From Robiginitomaculum sp. (GTDB taxonomy: Bacteria > Pseudomonadota > Alphaproteobacteria > Caulobacterales > Maricaulaceae): a stretch of DNA of 64,000 nucleotides. The notes below the pieces were generated by a model that did not search any database, had not been told where the DNA came from, and saw only the letters and a list, made by a program, of their open reading frames with translations. Location: NCBI GenBank assembly GCA_021776525.1, contig JAJFFT010000004.1:344499-408498 (forward strand), given 5' to 3'. Shown one piece after another: positions 3,153-44,631 of this stretch (within the stretch, counting starts at the first letter, position 1; every line of letters starts with the position of its first letter). The position numbers were made by a program, and so were the translations under genes.

Positions 3153-3602
3153 TTAATCCCTTGCCGCATCCAGCACTTCGCGCAGGCGCACTAAAAATGG
3201 CAAGGCATCAGCAAATTCCTCAACGCTAAAGGACGATAAAGCCTGCTGCATCACAGGGGTGATGGCCGCCAGTGCCCGCCCGTGCATGGCCACGCCCGCA
3301 TCGGTAATGCACACCTGTTTGCCGCGCCCGTCTTGTGGATCGGCGGTCATGCTGATCAGCCCGCGCGCCGACAGACGGCTCAACGTGTTGGTCATCGCCC
3401 CCTTGGTCACCTGAAAGGCGCGTGCCAATTCTGTTGGGCTTTGGGCCGTATCACGGCGCAAGAAATGGCTGAGCACCCCAAAATGTGCCATGCGCAGGCC
3501 ATCAGGCAGCGCCCGTTCCAATGCGTTCTGGCTCAGCTGGCTGATAATGCCAATTTCTGTAAAAACGGCAAAGGTGGGATCTGGGTCAGGGGGAATACTC
3601 AT
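3153..3602 (-). CDS. MarR family transcriptional regulator
   Basis: 149 aa with a winged-HTH signature (LSHFLRRDTAQSPTELARAFQVTKGAMTNTLSRLSARGLISMTADPQDGRGKQV). Its start overlaps the upstream gene's stop (ATGA at 3599-3602). Confidence 0.9.
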   Translation of the reverse strand: MSIPPDPDPTFAVFTEIGIISQLSQNALERALPDGLRMAHFGVLSHFLRRDTAQSPTELARAFQVTKGAMTNTLSRLSARGLISMTADPQDGRGKQVCITDAGVAMHGRALAAITPVMQQALSSFSVEEFADALPFLVRLREVLDAARD

Positions 3603-4735
3603 GCCTGTATTAATTTTGCCTCCAGGGGCCAGCGGGGGGCGGGCACCACGGGTTTAGCATAGCCGATCCGCGCAAACATTTGAATACGGGCACCGTCTTC
3701 TATGTCCAGTAAATGGTGGATCAGTCCCAGTGCTTCCTGCATTTCTACATACTCCTGCAAAGCCTGACTGAGCGGATGCATGGCAAGGCCATGGGCTGTG
3801 GCGTTTAGGTTGAGGCGTAAATAGGCGGCCCCGGCTTTGATCTGATCCAGGCGGGTGTTGGCTGGTGTATTGACCCAGACAAAGCCATGGGCGCTTTTGA
3901 TACCTCTGGCGTAGTCTTCACGTCCGGTGCGAAACATGGCCGAATCCATATCGGCAAGGTTCTTGCGCGTTAAAAAGCCCAATCGGTGCAAGGCCTCTTT
4001 CATGGGACCTTCCAGCGCAATGCCATCAGGAGTTTCGTTGTTCTCGCGCGCGCCAATACGCATGACATCCACGCTTTCCATATAGGTGCGCGGGGTATCA
4101 AACTCGATATTCGAGGCAATGACGGTAATGTCCTGTAAGCGGGCCACTGGTTCTGGCGCATTGGTGAAACCAGCCAAGATGCCCTCACCCAGATCGTGGG
4201 TAATGGCCTCTAGCGTCTGTGACGAGGGTACTTGTTCCGTGTAAAGGGTGCGGTTGGTGCGTCGGTTCAAAATATGCGCAAAATAGGGGGAGGGTATAGC
4301 CTGTTCCAACGGACTTAGGCGTAAGTGAGCCACAGGTCTGGCATCAAGTTTTTTATCGTCATAGCCATCAGGAAAAGCGGTGATGTCGGCCTTAAAGCCA
4401 AATTCCTGTGCGGCAATGCGGAACTGTTCCAGAAAACAGCCAAGGCCAATGGTGATTTGACGGCTATAAGGGTCTGTTTCTGGCAATAAACGATCAAGAT
4501 CACACATCAGTGTGGCTTGGGTTTCCGAGGTCAACTCAACCACCCATGGCTGTTTATTGTGGGGGTTTGGTGCCAGCAAAGCATAGGAAAGTGAGCGGCG
4601 CATAGGGTCGCTATAGCTATCGGTGGCGCGCCAGGGCAGGCGGGCGCTGTCTGCACCAGTGGAGCAGGCCGTGGCGGGCAAAATAATTGCTGAGCTGCCT
4701 GCAATTTTGAGAAAGTTACGCCGATTGACTGACAT
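3599..4735 (-). CDS. Tat-signal nitroreductase-superfamily (Acg-like) FMN oxidoreductase
   Basis: I chose the start at MSVNRRNFLKIAGSSAIILPATACS (twin-arginine motif, GGAGA Shine-Dalgarno upstream). The body contains LLAPNPHNKQPW and related motifs typical of two-domain nitroreductase-like proteins. Confidence 0.8.
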   Translation of the reverse strand: MSVNRRNFLKIAGSSAIILPATACSTGADSARLPWRATDSYSDPMRRSLSYALLAPNPHNKQPWVVELTSETQATLMCDLDRLLPETDPYSRQITIGLGCFLEQFRIAAQEFGFKADITAFPDGYDDKKLDARPVAHLRLSPLEQAIPSPYFAHILNRRTNRTLYTEQVPSSQTLEAITHDLGEGILAGFTNAPEPVARLQDITVIASNIEFDTPRTYMESVDVMRIGARENNETPDGIALEGPMKEALHRLGFLTRKNLADMDSAMFRTGREDYARGIKSAHGFVWVNTPANTRLDQIKAGAAYLRLNLNATAHGLAMHPLSQALQEYVEMQEALGLIHHLLDIEDGARIQMFARIGYAKPVVPAPRWPLEAKLIQA

Positions 4736-4775
4736 GAGGTCTCCATTCTTTGTGGGCCGGGGAGGGCATTTATAA

Positions 4776-4814
4776 TTCAACGTTAAACTAATAACATAAA
4801 GTTCAACGTTAAAC
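4776..4814. promoter_or_regulatory. two copies of TTCAACGTTAAAC (26-bp period), a candidate MarR operator
   Basis: Exact 13-mers lie at 4776-4788 and 4802-4814. Each is an imperfect palindrome around AACGTT. They sit 40-80 nt upstream of the nitroreductase-MarR operon start. Confidence 0.45.
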
Positions 4815-4869
4815 AATGCGTGTTCACAAGAAAATTGGCTGATGGTTAAAGGTCGGTATCTGGCTGTGC

Positions 4870-6459
4870 TCAGAGATAGGTGCTGGGGCAGTCCGGGTCG
4901 TCACGATAGCGGCAGGCATTGGCCAGATTTTCATCACAAAACGTGCACAGCGCCTTGGGGTGGGGCTGGGTGATGGTGTCGTTTTCGATGCGAAAACCCT
5001 GGGCGCGGAATTTTTTCAAAGTGCGTGAAAAAGTTTCCGGGGTCATGTCCAGATAAGAGGCGATCAGAGATTTGTCATAAGGCAGGCGAATTGCCGTTGT
5101 GTTTTCACTGCCTTCTTCAATACCCAGTTTTAACAAATACCAGCCGACGCGTTCCGATGCATTACGCAGACGCGAATGTTCGATCTGTTGGATCAAATGC
5201 TGTGAACGCATGGACAGACTGCCAATCATGTTCAGCGCAAAGGCATTGTTGTCTTGCAAAATCTGACGCACCACTGGTGCAGGCAGGGACAGAAGCGTGG
5301 CTTTTTCTACGACCTGGGCACTGGCCACCGAAGGAATGTTGAGCAAGATAGCGGCTTCCATGATGCTGTCACCGGCCGAAAGCATTTGCAAAACAGCCTC
5401 ATCGCCCGCATCAGAGCCTTTGAATAATTTTACCCATCCCGAAAGGATGAGATAGAAGCGTGATAATGGTTCAGACTGTAAAAACAGCAGTTTTCCCTTT
5501 TCGCACTCCTGGATCGTGGCGTGCGTCAGCAAAGATGTCAGTTCTTTCTCCTCCAGCTTTGAAAGCGCTGGCAAGGCCCGGATTAACGGCATGTGCCGTT
5601 CCAGGCTGGTGGAGAGGGTTGGGGGTTTGACCGCTCGCCTTTGAGGCTGGCTGAGGATAACAGGGGCGGCAACCAGTGTGTTGACCAGTTCGGCCTCGAC
5701 CAGTTTTAACCGTTCAATTTTTCCGGTCAGCAGCTCGAACCAGGTGATCGGGGAAATAGTTTCCAGCTCTTTGGCTCGCGCATCACTGGCCAGCATGTCA
5801 TGCAGGTCTTCGACAAACTGCATGACATAACCGGACGTCACCTTTTCAACCATTTCGCGTTGTGCAGGCGAGGCGAGTGACACAAAGGCGCGTTTATAGG
5901 CGCCCTGTTCATCAATCAGGGTCAGCATGCGTTCGGAAAATTCGCGATTCTTGAACACCTGGCTGCAAAACCCATGAGCGCCCCAGGCGCGTTCCCGGCC
6001 GACGCGCTCCTTCCACTGCAATAAATTGGCATAGGCCGTTGCCGCGGTCGGGGTCGCGCTGGTGACATGCAGGGCGATTTCAATCTGTGTGTCCAAGATC
6101 GGGCTGAGCGTCGTGTAGGTGTAGAAGTTGACGGCCCGTGCGAAAGATAACGCAAATTGATCAACACGGTGTCTGTGGGTGGACAAATCCTGAGCCGTGC
6201 CCAGTATTTCCAACACTTTTTGCAGCGTTGCCGCACCAATGCTAGTGGCCAGTTCCGGTGTGTTGCAAACCGTCTGCAAAGCCTCGGCGGCGGCGTTGGT
6301 CTCCAGACGTTGCTGGCGCAGCTCATCCGAGAAAATCTCACCATCGCTGTCGACAAAAAGTGCCGTGCAGCCGCGTTCCAATTGTAATTGGTGCGCCAGC
6401 CCGCCCAATTTCAGCAGCACAGAAATCGTGACAGGTCCGAGTGTGACATTGTTGTCCAT
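4870..6459 (-). CDS. Crp/Fnr-family regulator with an N-terminal NIT (nitrate/nitrite-sensing) domain and a C-terminal CX2CX7CX7C tail
   Basis: 529 aa from the ATG at 6459 (a TTG at 6480 is also possible). The N-terminal 260 aa or so carry NIT-like motifs (LQLERGCTALF, LLQWKERVGRERAWG, ITWFELLTGKIERLKLVE). A cNMP-binding-like barrel follows, then an HTH with the FNR-type ETFSR motif, then the Cys-rich tail LCTFCDENLANACRYRDDPDC. Confidence 0.85.
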   Translation of the reverse strand: MDNNVTLGPVTISVLLKLGGLAHQLQLERGCTALFVDSDGEIFSDELRQQRLETNAAAEALQTVCNTPELATSIGAATLQKVLEILGTAQDLSTHRHRVDQFALSFARAVNFYTYTTLSPILDTQIEIALHVTSATPTAATAYANLLQWKERVGRERAWGAHGFCSQVFKNREFSERMLTLIDEQGAYKRAFVSLASPAQREMVEKVTSGYVMQFVEDLHDMLASDARAKELETISPITWFELLTGKIERLKLVEAELVNTLVAAPVILSQPQRRAVKPPTLSTSLERHMPLIRALPALSKLEEKELTSLLTHATIQECEKGKLLFLQSEPLSRFYLILSGWVKLFKGSDAGDEAVLQMLSAGDSIMEAAILLNIPSVASAQVVEKATLLSLPAPVVRQILQDNNAFALNMIGSLSMRSQHLIQQIEHSRLRNASERVGWYLLKLGIEEGSENTTAIRLPYDKSLIASYLDMTPETFSRTLKKFRAQGFRIENDTITQPHPKALCTFCDENLANACRYRDDPDCPSTYL

Positions 6460-6579
6460 GATACTCGTGCGCCTTCCCAAAACTCAGTGGAGTTTAGACC
6501 ATGGTGAAACAGACTCAAACCATTAAACCCCGATCAATAGCAGATAATGCGGGAGCCATTTTGCTGCGTCCGGTAAAAC

Positions 6580-6593
6580 TTGATGTATGTCAA
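6580..6593. promoter_or_regulatory. FNR/FixK-type box TTGATgtatGTCAA in the divergent regulator/narK1 promoter region
   Basis: It matches the TTGAT-N4-ATCAA consensus at 9 of 10 positions. Its centre is about 80 nt upstream of the narK1 ATG and about 125 nt upstream of the regulator ATG. Confidence 0.55.
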
Positions 6594-6666: not shown

Positions 6667-8142
6667 ATGGAATTACAAAACAAAGCTACCAGTCTTTGGG
6701 GCGATTTTTTACGCGTTGATAAAGTACAAATCAGAACATTTCATGTGACATGGTTTGCATTCTTTTTATGTTTCTTTGCCTGGTTTGGCATTGCGCCGTT
6801 AATGGCCGTTGTTCGCGAAGAACTGTCGCTGACTAAGGAACAAATCGGGTGGACGATTATCGGGGCTGTTTCGGCAACGGTGTTCGCGCGAATACTCATT
6901 GGTTGGCTCTGTGACCATTATGGACCACGGCTCACCTATACATGGTTGCTGGTTCTGGCCTCTTTGCCGGTTATGGGCATTGGGCTGGCCCACGATTTCA
7001 CCACTTTCCTGATTTTCAGGATCTTAATCGGTGTCATCGGTGCCAGTTTTGTTATCACCCAATATCACACAACGAATATGTTTGCTCCAAATGTGGTTGG
7101 CCAGGCCAATGCGACCAGCGCCGGCTGGGGTAATCTGGGTGGCGGCGTGACCCAATTTGCCATGCCGATGATCTTTTCAATATTTGTTGTCGGCTTTGGT
7201 ACAACCGAGGCATTTGGCTGGCGGGCATCGATGGTGTTGGCCGGTGCAGTTATTCTGGTGACAGGTATCATCTATTATGTCTTCACACAGGATGCCCCTG
7301 ACGGCAGCTATAAAGAACTGCGCGCTCAAGGCAAAATGCCGGAAAGAAATAAATCAGCCGGCAACTTTTTTCATGCATTGAAAGATTATCGCGTCTGGAT
7401 GCTGTTTTTTATCTATGCCGCATGTTTTGGTATCGAACTGATCATCTTTGGCACTCTGGCCCTGTATTTCTTCGATTATTTTGGCCTCAATCTGGTCACC
7501 GCCGGTATGGTTGCCGCAAGCTTTGGTTTGATGAATATCTTTGCCCGGACACTGGGCGGCGTTTTTGGCGATAACTTCGCATCATTATGGGGCCTGAAAG
7601 GCCGTGCAACATGGCTGTTCATGACCTTGTTTGTTGAAGGTCTGGCCCTGATGCTGTTCTCGCAAATGAGCGTGCTATTCCTGGCCATTCCAACTTTGCT
7701 GTTCTTCTCATTGTTCACACAGATGTCAGAAGGCGCAACATTCTCGGTGGTTCCCTTTATTTCCAAGAGATCTCTGGGTGCGGTTGCCGGTGTTGTTGGT
7801 GCAGGCGGTAATGTCGGTGCTGTAGCCGCTGGTTTCCTGTTCAAGGGCGAGATGGATTGGCACACCTCATATCTCATTCTTGGGGCCTTGGTGACCTGTG
7901 CATCTTTCCTGGCATTGCTGATCCGCTTTAGCAAAGCCGACGAAATTGAAGCCGAGGAACGTTTTGACAGCGGCTTTACACGCCACAGAAAAGAAGCAGC
8001 ACGCAAACACCTCGAAGTGCTGGGTGTTGCCGATGAAGAGATTGACAAGATCAAAGTCTTTGGCAGCCGCGAAGCGCATGCGCTCAAACGGTTGGAGGCA
8101 CTGGGTGTGGATCTGAGCGATGTAAAGTTCAAACACAACTAG
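6667..8142 (+). CDS. narK: MFS nitrate/nitrite transporter (NarK1-type) with a 70-aa C-terminal extension
   Basis: 491 aa from an ATG preceded by GGAGG. It is a 12-TM MFS protein with NNP-family glycine-rich motifs (GWGNLGGG, GAGGNVGA). It lies directly upstream of narK2-narGHJI. Confidence 0.9.
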   Translation: MELQNKATSLWGDFLRVDKVQIRTFHVTWFAFFLCFFAWFGIAPLMAVVREELSLTKEQIGWTIIGAVSATVFARILIGWLCDHYGPRLTYTWLLVLASLPVMGIGLAHDFTTFLIFRILIGVIGASFVITQYHTTNMFAPNVVGQANATSAGWGNLGGGVTQFAMPMIFSIFVVGFGTTEAFGWRASMVLAGAVILVTGIIYYVFTQDAPDGSYKELRAQGKMPERNKSAGNFFHALKDYRVWMLFFIYAACFGIELIIFGTLALYFFDYFGLNLVTAGMVAASFGLMNIFARTLGGVFGDNFASLWGLKGRATWLFMTLFVEGLALMLFSQMSVLFLAIPTLLFFSLFTQMSEGATFSVVPFISKRSLGAVAGVVGAGGNVGAVAAGFLFKGEMDWHTSYLILGALVTCASFLALLIRFSKADEIEAEERFDSGFTRHRKEAARKHLEVLGVADEEIDKIKVFGSREAHALKRLEALGVDLSDVKFKHN

Positions 8143-8169
8143 AAAATGCCGCACAAGATAACGGAAAAA

Positions 8170-8195
8170 ACGGGGGTTTTGCCCCCGTTTTTTTG
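8170..8195 (+). terminator. rho-independent terminator after narK1
   Basis: An ACGGGGG-loop-CCCCCGT hairpin is followed by a run of 7 T. Confidence 0.75.
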
Positions 8196-8242
8196 TGCCT
8201 GTCCCATCTGATGGGCACACAAGATGTAAAAAAAGAGCATTT

Positions 8243-8256
8243 TTGACTTAGGTCAA
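8243..8256. promoter_or_regulatory. FNR/FixK-type box TTGACttagGTCAA upstream of narK2
   Basis: It is a perfect palindrome of the TTGA-N6-TCAA class. Its centre is about 97 nt upstream of the narK2 ATG and downstream of the narK1 terminator. Confidence 0.55.
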
Positions 8257-8345
8257 ACCGAATTTTGAAAAAGCTGGCACTTTGCGTTCAGCTGTTTGGG
8301 CGTTCGTCACTACGTCTGATCGTTTTCAAGAGAAGGAGCCAGGAT

Positions 8346-9953
8346 ATGGCTAAAGATCTTCAACAATGGAATCCGGAAGACGAAGCCGAATGGGCCTCGA
8401 CCGGTAAAGCCATTGCCAACCGAAATTTATGGATTTCCATTCCCGCGCTTTTGTGCGGGTTTGCTGTGTGGCTCTATTGGGGCATTATCACGGTGCAGAT
8501 GATCAATCTTGGTTATCCCTTTGCCAAGTCCGAGCTCTTTACCCTTGCCGCTATTGCGGGTCTGACCGGTGCAACATTGCGCATCCCCTCAACCTTCTTT
8601 ATCCGGCTGGCCGGTGGGCGTAACACCATCTTCTTCACCACCGCGCTTCTGATCCTGCCCGCCGCCGGCACAGGTTATTTGCTGCAAAACCCCGATACCC
8701 CGCTCTGGCAGTTCCAGCTGATGGCGCTCTTATCCGGTTTTGGCGGCGGTAACTTTGCCTCTTCAATGTCCAATATCAGCTTTTTCTTTCCTAAAAAAAT
8801 GGCGGGCTATTCGCTAGGTATGAATGCGGGCCTTGGCAATTTTGGTGTAACAACCATGCAAATCCTGGTGCCACTGGTGATGACCGCAGGCATTTTTGGC
8901 GGCGCGCCTATGGTGCTCAAAGCCACTTCAGGGACTTTGATCGGTAAAATTCCGGCCGGGACAGAAACCTATCTGCACAATGCCGGTTATATCTGGGTTG
9001 TCATCCTGATCCCGATCGTCATTGCCGCCTGGGTTGGTATGAACAATATCACCGCCAAGCACGTTTCACCCAATATTGGCTCACCCGCAGGTGCCTTTGC
9101 TAAAATCTCTGGCATGTTGCTGATTGGTTTTGCCACCTCGATCTTTGGTTTGTGGCTGATGCTGCCTGCCGGCGTTGGTGGGTCGGGCATGATGATCAGC
9201 AAATGGATTGTTTTACCGATCGTTATTGTGCTGACCGTGTTTGCACTGAAAATGATTCCAGGAGCGATCAAAGATAGCCTCAATCACCAATACAAAATCT
9301 TCAGCAACAAACACACTTGGGCGATGACGGTGATCTACACCATGACCTTTGGTTCTTTCATTGGTTACGCCGTGGCCTTTGGTCTTTCGATCAAAGTTGT
9401 ATTTGGCTTTCAACATGTGATGGTTGATGGGGTTATGACCCACAATTTGGCCAACCCTGATGGGCCAAGCGCCTTGATGTTTGCATGGACCGGGCCGTTC
9501 ATCGGTGCCCTGATCCGGCCTATCGGCGGCATGATTGCCGACAAAATGGGTGGTGCCAAAGTGACCCAAATCATTTCCGTGGTCATGGTCGGTGCCGCAC
9601 TGGGCGTCGCATATTATATGAAAGCGGCTTATGCCTCTGCTACTCCGCAGGATTATTTTGTGCCCTTCCTGGTACTGTTCCTGATCCTGTTTGCCGCCAC
9701 CGGCATTGGTAATGGCTCAACCTTTAGAACCATCGCTATGGTGTTCGATAAAGAACAGGCTGGGCCGGTTCTGGGGTGGACCTCTGCGGTTGCCGCATAC
9801 GGCGCCTTTATCATTCCCAAAGTGTTTGGCGAACAGATCAAAGCCACCACACCGGAATATGCGCTGTATGGTTTTGCTGCCTTTTATGCCCTGTGTATCT
9901 TGATCAACTGGTGGTTCTACCTTCGCAAAGACGCCTATGTGAAGAACCCATAA
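8346..9953 (+). CDS. narK: MFS nitrate/nitrite antiporter (NarK2-type)
   Basis: 535 aa from an ATG preceded by GGAG. It is a second, divergent NNP-family MFS protein (FGGGNFASSM, GIGNGSTFR motifs) immediately upstream of narG. Confidence 0.9.
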   Translation: MAKDLQQWNPEDEAEWASTGKAIANRNLWISIPALLCGFAVWLYWGIITVQMINLGYPFAKSELFTLAAIAGLTGATLRIPSTFFIRLAGGRNTIFFTTALLILPAAGTGYLLQNPDTPLWQFQLMALLSGFGGGNFASSMSNISFFFPKKMAGYSLGMNAGLGNFGVTTMQILVPLVMTAGIFGGAPMVLKATSGTLIGKIPAGTETYLHNAGYIWVVILIPIVIAAWVGMNNITAKHVSPNIGSPAGAFAKISGMLLIGFATSIFGLWLMLPAGVGGSGMMISKWIVLPIVIVLTVFALKMIPGAIKDSLNHQYKIFSNKHTWAMTVIYTMTFGSFIGYAVAFGLSIKVVFGFQHVMVDGVMTHNLANPDGPSALMFAWTGPFIGALIRPIGGMIADKMGGAKVTQIISVVMVGAALGVAYYMKAAYASATPQDYFVPFLVLFLILFAATGIGNGSTFRTIAMVFDKEQAGPVLGWTSAVAAYGAFIIPKVFGEQIKATTPEYALYGFAAFYALCILINWWFYLRKDAYVKNP

Positions 9954-9989: not shown

Positions 9990-10034
9990 TCTTATCTGAT
10001 ATCAGCGAATACGAACTCTTAAGGACAAAGATCC

Positions 10035-13000
10035 ATGAGCAATTTTATCGACAGACTGACTTATTTTTCAAAAGTCGACGGCAAGTTTTCAAACGGTCAC
10101 GGTATTACCACGACCGAGGCCAGAGACTGGGAAAAAGCCTATCGTGGACGCTGGGCGCACGACAAAATTGTACGCTCCACCCATGGGGTGAATTGCACCG
10201 GCTCATGTAGTTGGAAGATCTATGTCAAAAACGGTCTGGTGACCTGGGAAACCCAACAAACCGACTATCCGCGTACCCGGCCCGACATGCCCAATCATGA
10301 ACCACGTGGTTGTTCGCGCGGGGCCAGTTATTCCTGGTATCTCTATTCTGCGGCGCGGTTGAAATTTCCGCTGATCCGTTCCCGCCTTTTGAAGCTTTAT
10401 CGCGAAGCCAAGGCCGAACTGGGTGATCCGGTTCTGGCCTGGGGCAGCATTGTTTCAGATCCCGCCAAAGCCAATGACTATAAAAAAATGCGCGGTCTGG
10501 GCGGGTTTGTACGCGCCAATTGGGACGAAGTGAACGAAATCACCGCTGCAGCTAATATCTACACCACCAAAACCTATGGCCCGGACCGGGTGTTTGGCTT
10601 CTCGCCAATCCCGGCTATGTCGATGGTGTCTTATGCTGCGGGCTCGCGTTATTTGTCGCTCATGGGCGGGGTCTGCCTCAGCTTTTATGACTGGTATTGC
10701 GATCTGCCTCCATCAAGCCCGCAAACCTGGGGCGAGCAAACCGACGTGCCCGAAAGCGCCGACTGGTTCAACTCCTCCTATATTATCGCCTGGGGTTCCA
10801 ACGTGCCGCAAACCCGCACCCCGGATGCCCATTTCTTCACCGAGGTGCGTTATAAAGGCACCAAGACCGTATCCGTCACCCCGGATTATTCCGAAGTCGC
10901 CAAGCTGACGGATATCTGGCTGAACCCGCGCCAAGGCACCGATGCGGCCATGGCCATGGCCATGGGGCACGTGGTGTTCAAGGAATTCCATCTGGGCAAC
11001 AAGTCCGAATACTTTACTGATTACGTCCGTAATTATTCCGACATGCCGATGCAGGTTTTGCTGGAGAAGAAGGGCGGCCATTACGTGCCGACTCGCAATC
11101 TGCGCGCCTCGGACTTTACGGGGGCTTTGAAGGTCAAAAATAATGCCGAATGGAAATCGGTTATTTTCGATGAAAGTTCGCAAAGCCACCGGGTGCCAAA
11201 CGGCACCATCGGTTCGCGCTGGGGCGAAGAAGGCAAATGGAATCTTGAGGCCAAGGATAACGCCACCGGCGAAGATATCTGGCCCAATTTGAGCAATATC
11301 GACAATCCTGACGAGGTACTGGACGTCGCCTTCCCATATTTTGGTAATCAGGAACACGAAAGCAAAATTTTTGCCCATACAGACCATGACAGCGTACAGG
11401 TCCGTAAACTTCCCGTCCGCAAGGTTTCACTAAAAGGCAAAAAAACCGCTTATGTGGCAACCGTGTATGATCTGATGGCCGCAAATTACGGTATTGATCG
11501 TGGCCTTGGCGGCGACAATGTCGCCACCGGCTTTGACGACAATGTGCCTTATACACCGGCATGGGCCGAGGCCATTACGGGCGTGTCGGCTGATAAAATT
11601 ATTCAGGTGGCCCGCGAATTTGCGCAAAATGCCGACAAGACCCGTGGCCGCTCGATGGTCATTCTGGGCGCTGCGATCAATCACTGGTACCATATGGATA
11701 TGACCTATCGGGGGATTATGAATCTTCTGATGATGTGCGGGTGTATCGGTAAATCCGGTGGTGGCTGGGCGCACTATGTTGGGCAGGAAAAATTGCGCCC
11801 GCAAACCGGCTGGTTGCCATTGGCCTTTGGGCTGGATTGGAACCGTCCGCCACGGCAAATGAACTCGACCTCGTTCTTCTATAACCATTCCAACCAATGG
11901 CGTTATGAAAAACTGGGCGTTGATGAAATTCTTTCGCCGCTTGCCGATGCAGACAAATGGAAAAACCATTCATTGATTGACTGCAATGTACGCTCGGAAC
12001 GTATGGGCTGGTTACCATCAGCGCCGCAATTGGACGAAAATCCGCTGGGGCTGGCCGCCAAGGCCGCTGCGGCAGGTCAATCCACCAAGGATTATGTCAC
12101 CGCACAGCTGAAAGCGGGCGATCTGCAATTTGCAGCCGAAGACCCGGACAAAGAGGATAATTTCCCGCGCAACCTGTTTGTTTGGCGCTCTAACATTCTG
12201 GGCTCATCCGGCAAGGGGCACGAATACATGCTGCGCCATTTGCTGGGTGCTCAGAACGGTGTGATGAGCGACGATCTGGACGAAATGGGGGCTGAAAAAC
12301 CCGCCGAAGTGAAGTGGCACAAGGACGCACCCGAAGGCAAACTTGACCTGGTGGTGACGCTTGATTTTCGTATGTCGACCACGGCGGTTTATTCGGACAT
12401 CGTTATGCCGACCGCCACATGGTACGAAAAGAACGACCTGAACACCTCGGATATGCACCCCTTTATTCACCCGCTATCGCGCGCCGTGGACCCGGCCTGG
12501 GAAAGCCGCTCGGATTGGGACATTTTCAAAGGTCTGGCCCGTAAGTTCTCGGAAATCTGCCCCGGTCATCTGGGTGTTGAAACCGATCTGGTGACCGTGC
12601 CGATCTTGCACGACACCCCCGGAGAGCTGGGACAGGCGCTGGGCGTTTCTGACTGGAAAAAAGGCGAATGTGACCCGGTGCCCGGTAAATCCATGCCAAA
12701 CCTTGTCGAGGTAGAGCGCGATTACCCCAACCTTTACAAGAAGTTCACATCCCTGGGTCCACTTTTGTCTAAACTGGGCAATGGCGGCAAGGGTATTGGC
12801 TGGAATACCGAATCCGAGGTCGAACTGCTGGGTAAGCTCAATAAAACAGTACGCGAGGAAGGCGTTTCACACGGCCAGCCGCGTATCGAAAGCGACATTG
12901 ATGCAACCGAGGTGATCTTGTCTCTGGCCCCTGAAACCAATGGTCAGGTGGCGGTCAAAGCCTGGGCCGCCTTGTCCAAAATGACCGGACGGGATCATAC

Positions 13001-13826
13001 CCATCTGGCCCGGCCCAAAGAGGACGAGAAAATCCGCTTTCGGGATATTCAGGCCCAGCCGCGCAAGATCATTTCTTCGCCAACATGGTCTGGCCTTGAG
13101 GATGAGCATGTCAGCTATAATGCCTGTTATACCAATGTGCACGAGCTGATCCCGTGGCGCACGTTGACGGGGCGCCAGCACTTCTATCAGGATCATGAAT
13201 GGATGCGTGATTTCGGTGAAGGTTTGTGTGTTTACAAACCCCCGATCTCGACCCGCACCATCACCAATTCGGTGAAATCTCGCGGTGGTGATGCCAAACA
13301 GATCACGCTGAACTGGATCACCCCGCACCAGAAATGGGGGATCCACTCGACCTATTCGGACAACCTTTTGCTGCTCACCATGAACAGGGGCGGACCGGTG
13401 GTCTGGCTCTCGGAAACTGATGCACGCAAAGTGGACGTGGCCGATAATGACTGGATCGAGCTTTATAACGTCAATGGCGCCATCACCGCCCGTGCGGTGG
13501 TTAGCCAACGTGTGCCCGAAGGCATGTGCATGATGTATCATGCCCAGGAAAAGACCATGAATACCCCAGGCAGCCGCATTACCGGCAAGCGCGGCGGCAT
13601 TCATAATTCGGTCACCCGCGCGGTGGTCAAACCCACTCATATGATCGGCGGCTATGCGCAGCTTTCTTATGGCTTCAATTATTACGGCACCGTTGGGTCA
13701 AACCGTGATGAGTTTGTCATCTTGCGTAAAACCAACACGGTGGACTGGATGGAAGAACCATACGTCGAAGGCCAACCCATCAATACGCCAAAAGTTTCGC
13801 CTGCAGACAAGGAGGCAGCCCAATGA
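10035..13826 (+). CDS. narG: respiratory nitrate reductase alpha subunit
   Basis: 1263 aa. It has the N-terminal vestigial Tat-like segment, the FS0 ligand motif HGVNCTGSCSW (H-x3-C-x3-C), and molybdopterin oxidoreductase domains throughout. Confidence 0.98.
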   Translation: MSNFIDRLTYFSKVDGKFSNGHGITTTEARDWEKAYRGRWAHDKIVRSTHGVNCTGSCSWKIYVKNGLVTWETQQTDYPRTRPDMPNHEPRGCSRGASYSWYLYSAARLKFPLIRSRLLKLYREAKAELGDPVLAWGSIVSDPAKANDYKKMRGLGGFVRANWDEVNEITAAANIYTTKTYGPDRVFGFSPIPAMSMVSYAAGSRYLSLMGGVCLSFYDWYCDLPPSSPQTWGEQTDVPESADWFNSSYIIAWGSNVPQTRTPDAHFFTEVRYKGTKTVSVTPDYSEVAKLTDIWLNPRQGTDAAMAMAMGHVVFKEFHLGNKSEYFTDYVRNYSDMPMQVLLEKKGGHYVPTRNLRASDFTGALKVKNNAEWKSVIFDESSQSHRVPNGTIGSRWGEEGKWNLEAKDNATGEDIWPNLSNIDNPDEVLDVAFPYFGNQEHESKIFAHTDHDSVQVRKLPVRKVSLKGKKTAYVATVYDLMAANYGIDRGLGGDNVATGFDDNVPYTPAWAEAITGVSADKIIQVAREFAQNADKTRGRSMVILGAAINHWYHMDMTYRGIMNLLMMCGCIGKSGGGWAHYVGQEKLRPQTGWLPLAFGLDWNRPPRQMNSTSFFYNHSNQWRYEKLGVDEILSPLADADKWKNHSLIDCNVRSERMGWLPSAPQLDENPLGLAAKAAAAGQSTKDYVTAQLKAGDLQFAAEDPDKEDNFPRNLFVWRSNILGSSGKGHEYMLRHLLGAQNGVMSDDLDEMGAEKPAEVKWHKDAPEGKLDLVVTLDFRMSTTAVYSDIVMPTATWYEKNDLNTSDMHPFIHPLSRAVDPAWESRSDWDIFKGLARKFSEICPGHLGVETDLVTVPILHDTPGELGQALGVSDWKKGECDPVPGKSMPNLVEVERDYPNLYKKFTSLGPLLSKLGNGGKGIGWNTESEVELLGKLNKTVREEGVSHGQPRIESDIDATEVILSLAPETNGQVAVKAWAALSKMTGRDHTHLARPKEDEKIRFRDIQAQPRKIISSPTWSGLEDEHVSYNACYTNVHELIPWRTLTGRQHFYQDHEWMRDFGEGLCVYKPPISTRTITNSVKSRGGDAKQITLNWITPHQKWGIHSTYSDNLLLLTMNRGGPVVWLSETDARKVDVADNDWIELYNVNGAITARAVVSQRVPEGMCMMYHAQEKTMNTPGSRITGKRGGIHNSVTRAVVKPTHMIGGYAQLSYGFNYYGTVGSNRDEFVILRKTNTVDWMEEPYVEGQPINTPKVSPADKEAAQ

Positions 13827-15391
13827 CTATTCGTGCACAAATCGGCATGGTCCTGAATTTGGACAAATGCATTGGCTGTCACACCTGTTCCATCACCTGT
13901 AAAAACGTGTGGACCAGCCGCGGCGGCGTTGAATACGCTTGGTTCAACAATGTGGAAAGCAAGCCCGGTGTTGGTTATCCGCGCAATTGGGAAGACCAGT
14001 CTGAGTGGAAAGGCGGATGGGAGCTGAACAAGGCCGGTAAGTTGAAGCCAAAAATCGGTGGCAAACTCGGGGTTCTCTCCAACATTTTTGCCAATCCCGA
14101 CCTGCCTTTGATCGACGATTATTACGAGCCATTTACCTATGAGTATGACCATCTGAAAACTGCCAAGGAGAGCAAAGCGGTTCCCACGGCGCGGATGAAA
14201 TCGGCGATTACCGGCAAGTTCAAGGAAAAACCGGATTGGGGCGTCAACTGGGAGGAGATCCTGGGCGGTGAATTCGAAAAACGCTCGAAAGACTATAATT
14301 TCGACAAAATTCAAAAAGATATTTACGGCGAGTTTGAAAATACATTCATGATGTATTTGCCGCGTCTGTGCGAACATTGTCTGAACCCATCGTGTGTGGC
14401 CTCATGTCCCTCTGGCGCGATCTATAAGCGCGAGGAAGATGGTATTGTTCTGATCGATCAGGATAAGTGCCGGGGCTGGCGTATGTGTGTTTCGGGCTGC
14501 CCTTACAAGAAAATTTACTTCAATTGGCAGTCTGGTAAATCTGAAAAATGTACCTTCTGTTATCCTCGTATCGAGGCCGGCGAGCCAACCGTGTGTTCGG
14601 AAACCTGTGTCGGGCGTATTCGGTATCTGGGCGTGCTTTTGTATGATTCAGACAAGATCGAGGAAGCTGCATCAGCCAAGGAAGAAACAGATCTCTATCA
14701 AAGCCAGTGTGATCTCTTTTTGGACCCTCATGATCCCGAGGTGATCAAACAGGCGCTGGCCGATGGCGTGCCGCAAAGCTGGATTGACGGGGCGCAAAAT
14801 TCGCCGGTCTATAAAATGGCGATGGAATGGAAGATTGCCTTCCCGCTGCACCCTGAATATCGCACGCTGCCTATGGTTTGGTATGTGCCGCCGCTTTCGC
14901 CGATTCAATCGGCGGCCGAGGCCGGCCATCTGGACCAGAACGGCATGTTGCCCGATGTGCGCCAATTGCGCATCCCGACAAAATATCTGGCCAATTTGCT
15001 GACAGCAGGGGATGAAGAACCAGTGATCAGCGCGTTGGAACGGATGATGGCTATGCGGCTTTATATGCGCGGCAAAACCGTTGACGGGGTCGAAGATCCC
15101 GCCGTTCTGGAACAGGTCGGCATGTCAGAGGACGACATGAATGACATGTACCAGTTGATGGCGATTGCCAATTACGAGGACCGTTTTGTCATTCCGACCA
15201 ATCACCGCGAATACGCCGGTGATGGGCCGTTTGATCAGGAAATTGCCTTCTCGGCACGCTCTGAATGCGGCTTCTCTTTTGGTAATGGTTGTAATACGGG
15301 GGCGAAGAAAAAAACCAATCTCTTTGGTACCCAGACCCATAACAATACGCTTAGCGGGACACCGCGCAAAGGTCCGGGAGGCCAGTCATGA
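13823..15391 (+). CDS. narH: respiratory nitrate reductase beta subunit
   Basis: 522 aa with four Fe-S Cys groups (CIGCHTCSITC, CEHCLNPSCVASCP, CRGWRMCVSGCP, CTFCYPRIEAGEPTVCSETC). It overlaps narG by 4 nt. Confidence 0.98.
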   Translation: MTIRAQIGMVLNLDKCIGCHTCSITCKNVWTSRGGVEYAWFNNVESKPGVGYPRNWEDQSEWKGGWELNKAGKLKPKIGGKLGVLSNIFANPDLPLIDDYYEPFTYEYDHLKTAKESKAVPTARMKSAITGKFKEKPDWGVNWEEILGGEFEKRSKDYNFDKIQKDIYGEFENTFMMYLPRLCEHCLNPSCVASCPSGAIYKREEDGIVLIDQDKCRGWRMCVSGCPYKKIYFNWQSGKSEKCTFCYPRIEAGEPTVCSETCVGRIRYLGVLLYDSDKIEEAASAKEETDLYQSQCDLFLDPHDPEVIKQALADGVPQSWIDGAQNSPVYKMAMEWKIAFPLHPEYRTLPMVWYVPPLSPIQSAAEAGHLDQNGMLPDVRQLRIPTKYLANLLTAGDEEPVISALERMMAMRLYMRGKTVDGVEDPAVLEQVGMSEDDMNDMYQLMAIANYEDRFVIPTNHREYAGDGPFDQEIAFSARSECGFSFGNGCNTGAKKKTNLFGTQTHNNTLSGTPRKGPGGQS

Positions 15392-16053
15392 GAAGCTTTC
15401 GTGTTTTATCACATTTGCTGACCTATCCACAGGCTGACTGGGTCGGCCATATGGATGAGTTAAAAGAGGCCATTACAGACGAAGGTCTGGTCAAGGGCAA
15501 AACTTTGAAAAACCTGCTTGCCTTTATGGACGAGCTGGCCACCACAGACTTGATGGAAGCGCAAGAAAGCTATGTCGAGCTGTTTGACCGGGGGCGGGCA
15601 CATTGCCTGCATCTGTTCGAACATGTGCATGGCGAATCGCGGTTTCGTGGTCAGGCGATGATCGAACTGGCCGATAAGTATCAGGAAAAAGGGCTGCAAA
15701 TCGGCACCGGAGAATTGCCGGATTATTTGCCTTTGTTTTTGGAATTTATCTCTATTTGTGAGCCAGAAGAGGGCCTTGAAACTCTGGGGCAGGCCGCACC
15801 GGTGATTGCCACGATTGGCGAGAAACTGAAACGCGGTAAATCCGGTTATGCCTCTGTCATGACTGCCATTGTTGCGCTGTCGGGCGTAAAACTTAGCAAG
15901 GCAGAACTGGAAAAGGCGGCTGATGCAGCCTTGCCCGACATCCAAACACTGGACGAACTGGACGAGCAATGGAAGGAGCCCGAAGCCTTTACCGGGGCGC
16001 CCGATTGCGGCACCTGTGAAACTGGCGAAACCCCCACACTGGGAGCATTATAA
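15388..16053 (+). CDS. narJ: nitrate reductase molybdenum cofactor assembly chaperone
   Basis: 221 aa, NarJ/TorD-like (YVELFDRGRAHCLHLFEHVHGESR). It is translationally coupled on both sides. Confidence 0.9.
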   Translation: MRSFRVLSHLLTYPQADWVGHMDELKEAITDEGLVKGKTLKNLLAFMDELATTDLMEAQESYVELFDRGRAHCLHLFEHVHGESRFRGQAMIELADKYQEKGLQIGTGELPDYLPLFLEFISICEPEEGLETLGQAAPVIATIGEKLKRGKSGYASVMTAIVALSGVKLSKAELEKAADAALPDIQTLDELDEQWKEPEAFTGAPDCGTCETGETPTLGAL

Positions 16054-16736
16054 TGGCCGAATATATGAACACCTTTTTCTTTGGCATATATCCTTATATT
16101 GCCATTTTGACGATGATCGTCGGCTCGGTCCTGCGCTATGATCAAGACCCTTATTCTTGGAAAGCAGACAGCTCACAGTTGTTACACCGCAAGGGTTTGC
16201 GTGTGGGGAGTAATCTTTTCCACGTCGGCATTTTGTTGCTCTTTGCAGGTCATTTTGTTGGCCTTTTAACGCCGCACTGGGCTTATGAGCCGTTTATCAC
16301 AGCTGGTCAGAAACAAATTCTGGCGATGACGGCGGGCGGTATTTTTGGCTCTATGGCCTTTATCGGTATGACCATATTGATCTGGCGACGGACCACACAA
16401 GACCGGGTGCGGGCCACCACCAAATTTATGGATATGGCCATTTTGCTGATCCTCTTTGTGCAATTGGTGCTGGGTCTTTTAACAATTCCACAAAGCGCCA
16501 AGCACCTGGATGGCTCATCCATGATTGCTTTGGCCGAATGGGCACAGCATATCGTCACCTTTAGAGGCGGCGCCGCAGAGTTCATTACCGAAGAGGCGCT
16601 GGTCTTCAAACTGCACATTGTGCTGGGCCTGACCATCTTCCTCATCTTCCCATTCACGCGACTGGTGCACATGGTCAGTGCACCGTACAAATATATCTTG
16701 CGCTCTGGCTACCAGATCGTCCGCAAACGCGGCTAA
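16053..16736 (+). CDS. narI: respiratory nitrate reductase gamma subunit (dihaem cytochrome b)
   Basis: 227 aa with 5 predicted TM helices and the conserved His residues in helices II and V (FHVGILLLFAGHF; RLVHMVSAP). Confidence 0.95.
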   Translation: MAEYMNTFFFGIYPYIAILTMIVGSVLRYDQDPYSWKADSSQLLHRKGLRVGSNLFHVGILLLFAGHFVGLLTPHWAYEPFITAGQKQILAMTAGGIFGSMAFIGMTILIWRRTTQDRVRATTKFMDMAILLILFVQLVLGLLTIPQSAKHLDGSSMIALAEWAQHIVTFRGGAAEFITEEALVFKLHIVLGLTIFLIFPFTRLVHMVSAPYKYILRSGYQIVRKRG

Positions 16737-16762
16737 GATGTGTGCGAAAACCATCTGGAAGA

Positions 16763-16787
16763 GGGGAGCCATTGGCTCCCCTTTTTT
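16763..16787 (+). terminator. rho-independent terminator after narI
   Basis: A GGGGAGCC-att-GGCTCCCC hairpin is followed by TTTTTT. Confidence 0.8.
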
Positions 16788-16825
16788 GTGTGTTCCATAG
16801 GCTGCGACCTTTTGTCCACGAGGGT

Positions 16826-16902: not shown

Positions 16903-18153
16903 ATGCGCACCCCTCTTAAATCTGGTCTTTTTGCCAGCATTGCATCACTCGCATTGATCGCGGCGGCTTCTCCGTCTCTTGCTGAAGAGGCTAATTCATT
17001 GTCAGAGGCCTTCACCTTGGGCAAGGCTAGCCTGACTTTTCGTTACCGTGCCGAAGATGTTGACCAAACAGGCTTTGCGCAAAATGCGTTTGCGTCGACA
17101 CTGCGTACGCGCTTGAAGCTCTCAACGGCCGTTTTCAAAGGCTTTTCCGGGGTTCTGGAATTTGACAATGTGTCAAATATCGGCGCGACGGCCTTTAATG
17201 ATACGATCAATGGCAAAGCTCGCTTTCCAGTGATTGCCGATCCGGAAATCACCGAAGTTAATCAGGCCTATCTAGCTTATACCGGGTTTGATAAAACCAC
17301 TATGCTGGCTGGCCGCGTAGCACTGAATATGAATAATCAGCGCTTTGTAGGCACTGTGGGCTGGCGCCAGAATGACCAGACCTGGGACATGACAGGCATT
17401 ATCAATTCCTCTATCCCTGACCTGACTTTGACCGCCGGGTATGTGTGGAATGTCAATCGTATTTTTGGTAATGATCACCCGTTTGGTGATCTGGATACCA
17501 ACACCTTAATTCTGGATGCAAAATACACTGGTCTGCCGATTGGCAATGTTACGGCTTATGGTCTGATCATTGATCTGAACGATGCGCCGGTTTACGGCCT
17601 GTCCAGCAAAACCTTCGGGGTACGTTTTGACGGCAAATACAAGGCTGAAGGCAGCAATCTGACATTCTTGTATGAAGCCGAGTTTGCAAACCAGACAGAC
17701 AATGCCAGTAATCCAACCAATTACAGCGCAGATTATATCCATCTTTCCGCCGGCCTTTCCGCCAGTGGTCTAACCGGTAAAATCGGGTTTGAAAAACTGG
17801 GCTCGGATAATGGCGGCACTGTTGCCTTCCAGACACCTTTGGCAACCTTGCACAAGTTTAACGGCTGGGCCGATAAATTTTTGGGTACACCGGCCGGTGG
17901 TTTGGAAGACTTCTATGGCAGCCTGTCCTACAAAGTTCAGGGTGATGGGCCAATGAAGGGCTTGAAGTTCGATGTCATTTATCACGACTTCTCGGCCGCA
18001 ATTGGTGGTTCATACGGCGAAGAAATTGACCTGCAAATTTCTAAAAAAATCAGCAAGCACTATTATGCGGGCCTGAAATTTGCCGATTACAATGCCAAAG
18101 GCTTCGCCACAGACACACAGAAAATCTGGTTTACGGTCGGCGCAAACTTCTAA
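16903..18153 (+). CDS. outer-membrane beta-barrel porin, alginate-export (AlgE)-like family
   Basis: 416 aa from MRTPLK, with a signal peptide ending SLAEE. It has alternating beta-strand patterns, the motif GRVALNMNNQRFVGTVGWRQNDQTWD typical of the AlgE-like family, and a C-terminal aromatic residue (VGANF). Confidence 0.8.
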   Translation: MRTPLKSGLFASIASLALIAAASPSLAEEANSLSEAFTLGKASLTFRYRAEDVDQTGFAQNAFASTLRTRLKLSTAVFKGFSGVLEFDNVSNIGATAFNDTINGKARFPVIADPEITEVNQAYLAYTGFDKTTMLAGRVALNMNNQRFVGTVGWRQNDQTWDMTGIINSSIPDLTLTAGYVWNVNRIFGNDHPFGDLDTNTLILDAKYTGLPIGNVTAYGLIIDLNDAPVYGLSSKTFGVRFDGKYKAEGSNLTFLYEAEFANQTDNASNPTNYSADYIHLSAGLSASGLTGKIGFEKLGSDNGGTVAFQTPLATLHKFNGWADKFLGTPAGGLEDFYGSLSYKVQGDGPMKGLKFDVIYHDFSAAIGGSYGEEIDLQISKKISKHYYAGLKFADYNAKGFATDTQKIWFTVGANF

Positions 18154-33486: not shown

Positions 33487-34011
33487 GTGTTTTTATCTAC
33501 ATCCGAACATAGTGCGGACGCGAAGAACCGGGTTTCTGTGCCAGCGGGCTATCGTGAGGCGCTGCGCGATGATCCTTACGACGCAATTTATGTTTTGCCG
33601 CATTTTGATGGCCCGTATCTGGAATGCGGGGGCGAGCAGTTTGTCCAGCAATACCGCATGGATATTGCCAACCTGCCGCGTTATGACGCCTTGCGTAAAG
33701 ATCTGGAAATCGCCGTTATCGGTGCCATCCGCCGCCTTGATTTTGACAGCACCGGGCGGGTCACCTTGCCGCGTGATTTTATCGATCATGCGGGCATAGA
33801 CGGGCGTTGTGCCTTTGTCGGGTGTGATAATCATTTTCAAATCTGGAATGCTGATGCCCACGCTGCGCGTCTGCGCGATGTGCGTTCGCGTCTTTCCGCA
33901 CGACTGGCCGACCCCGCCGAGGCCGAGCGCATGGGCGGCGGTACTGATCTTGGGTCTTTGTTGCGTAACAGCGAATCCCTTGCTGCCCTCTTGAAGGGGG
34001 AGAAGCTATGA
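33487..34011 (+). CDS. mraZ: transcriptional regulator MraZ
   Basis: 174 aa with a GTG start and two SpoVT/AbrB-like halves (DAKNRVSVPAGYR and DSTGRVTLPRDF). It is the first gene of the dcw cluster. Confidence 0.9.
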   Translation: MFLSTSEHSADAKNRVSVPAGYREALRDDPYDAIYVLPHFDGPYLECGGEQFVQQYRMDIANLPRYDALRKDLEIAVIGAIRRLDFDSTGRVTLPRDFIDHAGIDGRCAFVGCDNHFQIWNADAHAARLRDVRSRLSARLADPAEAERMGGGTDLGSLLRNSESLAALLKGEKL

Positions 34012-35003: not shown

Positions 35004-35353
35004 TCCGGGTGTTTTATGGTCTAGCTACCGTGGTAATGGCGCTTTTGGCTTTTGCGTTGTATGTGGCCAAGACCGAAGCCCAAAGTGCACAGCAACGCAT
35101 TGCCAGCATGGAAGACGGTATCATTAGCGAGCTGGCCCATATCGCACAGTTGGAAAACGAGTTGGCTTATCTGGAACGTCCTGAACGTCTGGAGGCACTG
35201 GCGCGGGTGCATTTACAATTGCGGCCATTGGCTCCGGAACAGGACATGGCTTTTGCATTGCTCAGCGGTCAATACGCAGGGGCTTCGCCAAATGTTACGT
35301 CGAAAAATGCTGAGGCCAGCGGAGTTGTGTTGTCTGGCCGGGCGCATCAATAA
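35000..35353 (+). CDS. ftsL: cell division protein FtsL (alphaproteobacterial type)
   Basis: 117 aa with a single N-terminal TM helix followed by a coiled coil (LENELAYLERPERLE). It lies between rsmH and ftsI. Confidence 0.75.
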   Translation: MIRVFYGLATVVMALLAFALYVAKTEAQSAQQRIASMEDGIISELAHIAQLENELAYLERPERLEALARVHLQLRPLAPEQDMAFALLSGQYAGASPNVTSKNAEASGVVLSGRAHQ

Positions 35354-40996: not shown

Positions 40997-41004
40997 GAAA
41001 CACT

Positions 41005-44626: not shown

Positions 44627-44631
44627 GAGCG

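Follow-up and report, generated by a model that had tools for sequence, protein, structure and literature searches.

A NIT–Crp/Fnr–cysteine-tail protein as a predicted one-component nitrate regulator at the narK–narGHJI locus of Robiginitomaculum sp.

Expression of the nar genes in Paracoccus needs both FnrP and NarR, and NarR, an FNR-type protein that senses nitrate/nitrite, has been described as the alphaproteobacterial substitute for NarXL (PMC3541799, PMC8139620). No sensing mechanism of NarR was found in the literature searched. Here, we analyze a 64,000-nucleotide stretch of contig JAJFFT010000004.1 from Robiginitomaculum sp. (hereafter, the window), in which a gene divergent from narK1 encodes a 529-residue protein (hereafter, the regulator) that combines an N-terminal NIT domain, a Crp/Fnr module and a C-terminal tail with four cysteines. 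We conclude that the regulator is probably a cytoplasmic one-component factor that responds to intracellular nitrate or nitrite by switching on narK1, the narK2-narGHJI unit and a gene for a porin-like protein. The regulator probably shows how bacteria without NarX/NarL turn on nitrate respiration, a question that is only partly understood.

NarR of Paracoccus pantotrophus and P. denitrificans, an activator of narK-narGHJI that responds to nitrate/nitrite, is the described protein that comes closest to the regulator in function. In both cases, narK and the gene for an FNR-family module with the E--SR motif diverge from a shared region that contains TTGA-N6-TCAA boxes. The narR gene of P. pantotrophus DSM 11072 diverges from a narK fusion gene, the two being separated by a region that contains TTGATATTTGTCAA and TTGATCCAGATCAA, and TTGATCCAGATCAA is identical to a box in the locus of one relative of the regulator (L002). 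NarR aligns to residues 293–511 of the regulator with 31% identity (E = 1e-26) but, unlike the regulator, is only about 230–255 residues long and has neither a NIT domain nor C-terminal cysteines. Given the same layout and box type yet low identity, no NIT domain and no tail, NarR is the closest functional analogue of the regulator rather than its orthologue.

We further compared the regulator with described systems that resemble other parts of it. NasR of Klebsiella oxytoca (NIT-ANTAR, PDB 4AKK) likewise follows a one-component logic, and its N-terminal NIT domain is cytoplasmic and contains both arginines found in the regulator (R50/R176 in NasR, R29/R157 in the regulator). However, NasR acts through an RNA-binding ANTAR antiterminator in nitrate assimilation, whereas the regulator has as its output a DNA-binding Crp/Fnr module predicted to serve nitrate respiration; an ANTAR domain gave no Pfam match in the regulator. 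The Fnr proteins of Bacillus subtilis and B. cereus resemble the regulator in having a cysteine cluster in a C-terminal extension past the helix-turn-helix (HTH) domain (PMC3520743), and they regulate anaerobic and nitrate respiration, as we propose for the regulator. In contrast to the four cysteines of the regulator, spaced X2, X7 and X7, Bacillus Fnr employs CX2CX4C plus an aspartate from the dimer helix, and there is no close sequence kinship between the two. The FNR proteins of E. coli and Aliivibrio fischeri share with the regulator the fold, the E--SR motif, the type of DNA site and the class of target operon. The cysteine cluster of E. coli FNR (three N-terminal cysteines and one in the barrel, holding a [4Fe-4S] iron–sulfur (Fe-S) cluster) is lacking in the regulator, which has the NIT domain in its place. 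In the FNR plus NarXL arrangement, nitrate is sensed by a membrane histidine kinase, whereas in the regulator nitrate sensing would be built into the same protein. Finally, proteins of the FtrB/SPOA0323/DNR group are the best sequence and structure matches of the C-terminal half and have the GWVKL motif in common with it, but they are single-module proteins of about 230 residues without a NIT domain or a cysteine tail.

Thus, NIT domains, nitrate-responsive regulators of the FNR family (NarR) and Fnr proteins with a C-terminal cluster are each known singly. The original prediction, made from the letters of the window alone, stated that no characterized protein with this combined architecture was known, and we found none either: no description of a NIT-Crp protein turned up in the full-text literature, the coverage of which leaves out most subscription journals, in libraries of solved structures or in NCBIfam.

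Domain architecture, conserved residues and spread of the regulator family

The regulator gene starts with ATG and comprises 529 codons (Table 1). An alternative TTG start at position 6480 would lengthen the open reading frame (ORF); the orthologue alignments begin at the ATG. The four-part architecture proposed in the original prediction is real, with the NIT, cNMP_binding and HTH_Crp_2 domains all scoring far above the Pfam gathering scores. Translation recovered all the motifs quoted there, namely LQLERGCTALF (residues 25–35), LLQWKERVGRERAWG (146–160), ITWFELLTGKIERLKLVEAELV (238–259) and TPETFSR (473–479), as well as the codons of C505 (4945–4947), C508 (4936–4938), C516 (4912–4914) and C524 (4888–4890), which give the spacing CX2CX7CX7C. 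The computational tests that could have overturned the prediction, including a NIT hidden Markov model search of the N-terminal half and a check of tail conservation, all came out in its favor.

A structural model of the regulator was obtained with AlphaFold2 (AF2) from an alignment of 61 sequences, with a mean predicted local distance difference test score (pLDDT) of 85 and a predicted template-modelling score (pTM) of 0.57. From the N-terminus, it consists of the helical NIT domain (residues 8–264), a disordered linker (266–281), the barrel, a long helix (405–429) and the HTH domain. The NIT domain is tethered in the model at the point where E. coli FNR bears its N-terminal sensory extension. 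No PDB entry was found by Foldseek to span both halves of the regulator (query-normalised TM-score ≤0.35).

The NIT half matches PF08376 with 136.6 bits against a cutoff of 24.9, over profile positions 2–238 of 239, and is modelled as all-helical, with a block-mean pLDDT of at least 85 except for one block at 75. The matches listed by Foldseek for the regulator model all fall in the Crp half, so that a superposition on 4AKK is not among them; the family profile matches the sequence of NasR with E = 1e-26. In the pairwise alignment, R50 of NasR (CERG) corresponds to R29 of the regulator (LERG), and E175/R176 (QERA) correspond to E156/R157 (RERA). In the alignment of 61 orthologues with 90–38% identity, on which all conservation figures for residues are based, R29, E156 and R157 are invariant, along with H23, Q26, E28, G30, K150, E151 and G154. 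The R50A and R176A substitutions each abolished the nitrate response of a NasR-based Förster resonance energy transfer (FRET) biosensor, and these arginines were termed 'critical for response to NO3-' (PMC9581486); E175/R176 have been placed in the proposed binding pocket of NasR (PMC7496416). Of nitrate and nitrite, one was bound by the NasR-based biosensor with an affinity of about 2 uM, the other with one of about 90 uM (PMC9581486). The conservation of these residues suggests that the NIT domain of the regulator binds nitrate/nitrite as well. Because no signal peptide or membrane segment was found in the regulator, its NIT domain is expected to be cytoplasmic, as in NasR, and would therefore read nitrate after import by NarK.

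The C-terminal half has the features of the Crp/Fnr superfamily, a cNMP-binding-like β-barrel, a long dimerization helix and a C-terminal winged HTH, as seen with Pfam, Foldseek and AF2. The closest solved structures in a search with the family profile are the uncharacterized protein SPOA0323 of Ruegeria pomeroyi (3FX3/3H3Z, E = 5e-45), Pseudomonas DNR (E = 1e-37) and, at a greater distance, Aliivibrio FNR (E = 1e-15), and Foldseek gave a probability of 1.0 for GlxR, MtbCRP, CAP, FNR and DNR, with target-normalised TM-scores of 0.5–0.79. In the recognition helix, E475, T476, S478 and R479 are invariant among the orthologues. The nearest NCBIfam model is FtrB, but its score of 129.8 bits lies below the cutoff of 211 (NF006901/PRK09392), and the Caulobacter FtrB model scored 105.7 versus 300, so an FtrB identity was rejected. 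An identity as an E. coli-type Fnr was rejected as well (NCBIfam Fnr, 36.2 bits versus a cutoff of 228).

The family is widespread. Among 5.8 billion proteins searched, 290 matched, and in the best 120 clusters of these matches, down to 40% identity, nearly all members share the three Pfam domains of the regulator and are about 525 residues long. A profile search of 1.84 billion representatives at 50% identity yielded about 45 full-length representatives, and relatives are encoded in 161 of the 185,579 species genomes scanned. The best 80 loci of relatives from these 161 genomes all come from Alphaproteobacteria (Robiginitomaculum, Henriciella, Parvularculaceae, metagenome-assembled genomes (MAGs) of Hyphomicrobiales, Emcibacter, Methyloligella and Rhodomicrobium). 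The nearest relative, at 90% identity, is encoded in a Robiginitomaculum MAG, most of the closest matches are from marine alphaproteobacterial MAGs, and cultured carriers include Kordiimonas marina, K. lacus, K. lipolytica and Pseudokordiimonas caeni. The family reaches the SUP05-type Gammaproteobacteria, because a very divergent, AT-rich member is present in the thioautotrophic gill symbiont of Bathymodiolus thermophilus; the E--SR motif is kept in the SUP05-type members, too. With about 160 species-level genomes, including that of this mussel-gill symbiont, the regulator could be one of the main switches of nitrate reduction in the sea.

Database names of the relatives are generic ('nitrate- and nitrite sensing domain-containing protein', 'CRP-like cAMP-binding protein'). 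The label 'HcpR' occurs once, on a SUP05 homologue; the literature on HcpR/HcpR2 gave no comparable C-terminal motif, and this identity was dropped. No PLSDB plasmid record covered 80% or more of the regulator, and the gene contexts of the best Crp-only plasmid matches, Paracoccus sp. MC1862 and Ruegeria SPOA0323, were uninformative.

The nar locus, its promoter boxes and a proposed mechanism

Of the 68 loci in which the upstream flank measures 2.5 kb or more, 67 have the regulator gene divergent from narK..narGHJI. The gene of the SUP05 symbiont shares this arrangement, being divergent from narK-narK-narGH. The sole exception among the 68 is L014, where the regulator gene diverges from a mobA-like molybdenum-cofactor gene. 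Orthologues of narK2 at 74–95% identity are found in most of the 80 loci, plus one weaker match. As the original prediction stated, narXL is missing from the locus: neither these genes nor any other two-component genes were found among the window ORFs tested.

The three TTGA-N6-TCAA boxes reported in the original prediction are present upstream of narK1, narK2 and the porin-like gene (Table 1), and exact boxes are in excess in the window as a whole (5 observed versus 1.24 expected). Across the loci compared, an exact box lies in the divergent region in 57 of 67 cases, and the other 10 have a one-mismatch box, mostly GTGA-N6-TCAA, the form found in several Hyphomicrobiales loci. The chance rate of an exact box is estimated at about 0.003–0.03 per region (0.3–3%), given that eight bases are fixed and that the regions range from a few hundred to 1,500 nt in length. 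The box center lies 77.5–100.5 nt before the narK1 ATG (median 81.5) in nearly all loci with a NarK1 orthologue, and in 16 loci a second box lies 88.5–110.5 nt before narK2 (median 98). Thus, the register of the boxes is kept relative to narK1 and narK2 but not relative to the regulator gene. No sigma-70 -35/-10 match was found near the boxes, which fits class II activator-dependent promoters. The E--SR motif and the conserved TTGA-N6-TCAA sites at narK1 and narK2 together assign an FNR-type DNA specificity to the regulator, and its binding to these sites is predicted on this basis.

Some boxes depart from this pattern. In the SUP05-type locus L090, GTGATTTATATCAC (GTGA-N6-TCAC, at about 7960–7985) takes the place of TTGA-N6-TCAA, the E--SR motif notwithstanding. 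A fourth exact box in the window, TTGAATAATTTCAA (2309–2322), lies downstream of sucB, near a palindrome (about 2346–2365) and a terminator-like hairpin (about 2375–2400), and has no clear target. The box at 44225 was rejected as a regulatory site; it lies inside a coding ORF of a cluster resembling the cell-division/cell-wall (dcw) cluster and is probably due to chance.

The porin-like protein encoded after narI has weak Opr-porin and Alginate_exp matches and no confident family assignment. Its homologues (42–53% identity) are encoded next to or near the regulator gene in L043, L052, L055, L059, L065 and L074, loci that belong to Kordiimonadaceae, Emcibacteraceae and related MAGs. The protein may be a nitrate/nitrite-related porin and a second conserved member of the regulon. 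In the Emcibacteraceae MAG locus L055, a porin-like gene lies between two NIT-Crp paralogues (about 10001–11536 and from about 13089). A hairpin followed by a T-run at about 16761–16790, after narI, was read from the sequence; the terminator scan did not list it, and it is unconfirmed.

We propose the following mechanism. The NIT domain would bind nitrate/nitrite between its two four-helix bundles through R29 and R157, as in NasR, and the signal would cross the flexible linker to the Crp/Fnr module, either relieving auto-inhibition, as proposed for NasR, or altering dimerization or dimer geometry. The HTH domains of the dimer, with their E--SR motifs, would then bind the TTGA-N6-TCAA boxes. 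The spacing of the boxes would suit class II (-41.5) activation from a promoter whose 5' leader is about 40 nt long and in which the box replaces the -35 element. The direction of regulation, activation, is suggested by this position together with the NarR and FNR precedents. With NarK importing the inducer, the circuit would be self-reinforcing. Since a domain with an established role in nitrate response is joined to a NarR-like output, this mechanism is testable through a defined pocket, point mutants and a DNA site.

The cysteine tail, NIT-less relatives and alternative readings

The original prediction proposed to check the four tail cysteines for conservation among orthologues. C508, C516 and C524 turned out to be invariant, whereas C505 occurs in 60 of the 61 sequences and P525 in 90% or more of them. 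The tail consensus, aLCxFCDxxLAxxCxxxxxxxCP, is conserved down to 38% identity. Among 48 representatives of 470–560 residues, 44 of which are NIT fusions, 39 have the CX2CX7CX7C motif, as do 33 of 55 stand-alone relatives of 215–330 residues; 9 more of the latter have a CX2CXnC tail. The tail predates the NIT fusion. NIT-less relatives with the same tail are encoded beside nar and, in one case, beside ccoNOQP.

This last relative, P0132 of Robiginitomaculum NORP39, is a NIT-less Cys-tailed Crp protein (L084, gene 8001–8747) whose contig also carries a NIT fusion (L017). The P0132 gene is divergent from ccoNOQP-fixGHIS, with the perfect palindrome TTGATCTAGATCAA in between (box 7934–7947). Positions adjacent to cco/fix genes in alphaproteobacterial loci are normally occupied by oxygen sensors of the FnrL/FixK/FNR type, and, by its genomic position, P0132 looks like the FNR/FixK-equivalent oxygen regulator of NORP39. 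In Kordiimonas lacus, P0186 (L091, gene 7001–7747) adjoins a HemN-like radical SAM gene and fixGHIS and has a second type of tail with three cysteines, YVCxxCSxEFPC; Crp regulators with this tail are candidate C-terminal-cluster FNR analogues in Alphaproteobacteria. Two further Cys-tailed proteins without NIT, P0144 (250 aa, L085) and P0146 (287 aa, L086), are encoded divergently from narK-narGH in places where a NIT exon would not fit. The N-terminal cysteines of FNR were found in none of P0132, P0144, P0146 and P0186. In L086, the P0146 gene is followed by one unrelated gene and then by moaA, moaC/MoCF-biosynthesis and moeA.

In a neighbor-joining tree of the Crp modules, built without support values, NarR falls outside the Cys-tail group, and tailed proteins with and without NIT are intermixed; some of the 'stand-alone' sequences in this tree may be truncated gene calls, and one (P0151) is a split NIT-Crp. 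On one metagenomic contig (L087, 596–2173), the regulator is split into ORFs for NIT (204 aa), a 105-aa segment and Crp (241 aa), probably by a frameshift or an assembly error, a warning that some 'stand-alone' database entries are broken fusions. Molybdenum-cofactor genes follow on this contig: moaA, moaC/MoCF-biosynthesis, moeA, moaE and a MobA-like gene.

In Bacillus Fnr, a [4Fe-4S] cluster is held by C-terminal cysteines (PMC3520743). By analogy, the tail of the regulator most likely coordinates a metal, probably in the form of an Fe-S cluster that is labile to O2 or NO. A sensory Fe-S role is plausible because relatives with the tail occupy FNR positions, Bacillus Fnr provides a precedent, and the terminal Cys-Pro resembles ferredoxin-type ligands. 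Such a centre would add a second input, making activity dependent on low oxygen, too. The regulator would then be a two-input AND gate in a single polypeptide, with nitrate sensed via NIT and low O2 (or NO) via an undescribed C-terminal CX2CX7CX7C-P Fe-S site, both acting through one FNR-type dimer at one promoter box. The same tail would define an unrecognized class of proteobacterial FNR-like O2 sensors that includes the NIT-less paralogues beside ccoNOQP and nar and is analogous to Bacillus Fnr but of independent origin. We put this extended proposal forward tentatively, as possible rather than probable. Should the tail prove to be an Fe-S sensor, it would represent a new, widespread type of FNR-like oxygen sensor, and the regulator would combine nitrate AND anoxia in one compact protein switch of use for biosensors.

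Several observations weigh against the proposed mechanism or its extension. The inter-domain geometry of the AF2 model is uncertain, and at a pTM of 0.57 the relative orientation of the domains is unreliable. The existence of P0144 and P0146 implies that NIT is not required for a regulator at the nar position. The boxes are generic FNR/FixK/DNR-type sites that paralogues in the same genome could bind, and their position alone may be compatible with repression, too. Four cysteines within 20 residues could equally bind structural zinc, we know of no characterized Fe-S motif that matches the CX2CX7CX7C spacing, and the tail is modelled at moderate confidence (block-mean pLDDT 65–77). The further claim of the original prediction that the regulator replaces FNR is doubtful, because NIT-less paralogues carry the tail, among them P0132 at ccoNOQP, and K. 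lacus has the separate Cys-tailed P0186 at fixGHIS; related genomes thus keep a separate FNR-like regulator that might share the boxes. Given Paracoccus NarR, a precedent absent from that prediction, the fusion is better termed a substitute for NarR/NarXL than for FNR plus NarXL.

The main alternative is that the regulator senses nitrate only. The tail would then be structural, for example through zinc, or a stabilizer of the DNA-binding domain, and O2 control would be exerted by a separate FNR-like paralogue on the same or neighboring boxes, in the manner of FnrP and NarR, both of which are needed in Paracoccus (PMC3541799, PMC8139620). The Cys-tailed Crp paralogues at the ccoNOQP or HemN-like/fixGHIS loci, with identical box types, speak for this alternative, as do the lack of a known Fe-S motif of this spacing and the moderate confidence of the modelled tail. 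However, the paralogues found at the classical O2-sensor position bear the same tail and lack any other cysteine cluster, which points to a sensory role, as does the terminal Cys-Pro. Moreover, many loci have a single narK1 box, which two different dimers would have to share. We regard a nitrate-only sensor as rather unlikely.

A second alternative is that nitrate is not the main ligand of the NIT domain, which would respond to nitrite only or to some other small anion, or that the domain is chiefly a constitutive dimerization or auto-inhibition module, with the signal entering via the tail or the β-barrel. NasR responds to nitrite as well (PMC9581486), the specificity of NIT domains has been tested in few proteins, and NIT-less relatives occupy the same locus position. 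Yet both arginines required for the nitrate response of NasR and the ERG and GxERA motifs are invariant across the family, and the NIT-containing members are almost exclusively nar-linked, which makes this alternative improbable. That the regulator is a repressor or auto-regulator released by nitrate is highly improbable: in most loci with a NarK1 orthologue, the box lies about 52–105 nt from the regulator start codon and could overlap the regulator promoter, but its distance is constant to narK1/narK2 and not to the regulator, there is no -35-like element, and activation is typical of FNR-family proteins with E--SR motifs at sites of this kind, including NarR (PMC8139620).

Feature coordinates and surroundings of the locus

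Table 1. Coordinates in the window of the regulator gene, its domains, the neighboring nar genes and the boxes.
Feature	Position	Strand	Basis and remarks
NIT–Crp/Fnr–Cys-tail regulator gene	4870..6459	-	529 aa, stop codon included in coordinates; ORF and translation, three Pfam domains, full-length homologues in at least 120 clusters
NIT domain	5674..6399	-	Residues 21–262; Pfam PF08376, E = 2.3e-39; includes R29 (LERG) and E156/R157 (RERA)
Flexible inter-domain linker	5611..5667	-	Residues ~265–283; AF2 pLDDT <50 at 266–281; poorly conserved among 61 orthologues
Crp/Fnr-type sensor β-barrel (cNMP_binding-like)	5248..5511	-	Residues 317–404; PF00027, E = 1e-15; Foldseek
Dimerization helix			Residues 405–429, directly after barrel; AF2 helix
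Crp-type winged HTH	4945..5154	-	Residues 436–505; PF13545, E = 4e-11; E475-x-x-S478-R479 recognition motif
C-terminal Cys tail	4885..4947	-	C505-X2-C508-X7-C516-X7-C524-P525
narK1, NarK-family MFS nitrate/nitrite transporter, likely target	6667..8142	+	Pfam MFS_1; TIGR00886, E = 6e-87, 292 bits, below cutoff of 311.7
narK2, NarK/NarU-type transporter, first gene of narK2-narGHJI unit	8346..9953	+	NCBIfam NarU/NarK, E = 1e-86 and 2e-76, below cutoffs
narGHJI, respiratory nitrate reductase	10035..16736	+	narG 10035–13826, narH 13823–15391, narJ 15388–16053, narI 16053–16736; Pfam Nitr_red_alph_N, Molybdopterin, Fer4_11, Nitr_red_bet_C, Nitrate_red_del, Nitrate_red_gam
Porin-like outer-membrane protein, probable regulon member	16903..18153	+	416 aa; signal-peptide-like N-terminus; Opr-porin 29.7 bits, below cutoff
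Box 1, TTGATGTATGTCAA, FNR/FixK-type	6580..6593	.	Center 80.5 nt before narK1 ATG, ~127 nt before regulator ATG
Box 2, TTGACTTAGGTCAA	8243..8256	.	96.5 nt before narK2 ATG, after hairpin terminator 8165–8193
Box 3, TTGATCTGAATCAA	16826..16839	.	~70 nt before ATG of outer-membrane protein gene

Immediately downstream of the regulator gene lies a gene for an Acg-family FMN-binding oxidoreductase (3599–4816, minus strand; NCBIfam NF047509, 238.9 bits, cutoff 199), followed by a gene for a MarR-type regulator (3153–3602, minus strand). The Acg family is that of Mycobacterium tuberculosis Rv3131, a member of the DosR regulon induced by hypoxia/NO. This pair is present only in the closest relatives, with both genes in L002–L004 and the MarR gene alone in L001.

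The GC content is about 50–58% in the window and about 49–55% in the nar island, and no obvious mobile-element signatures were found in the ORFs examined in the island. Housekeeping genes of the window include sucA (3' end) and sucB within 5–2109 and polA at 22731–25514. The run of same-strand ORFs at about 34000–50100 resembles, by gene order, the dcw cluster.

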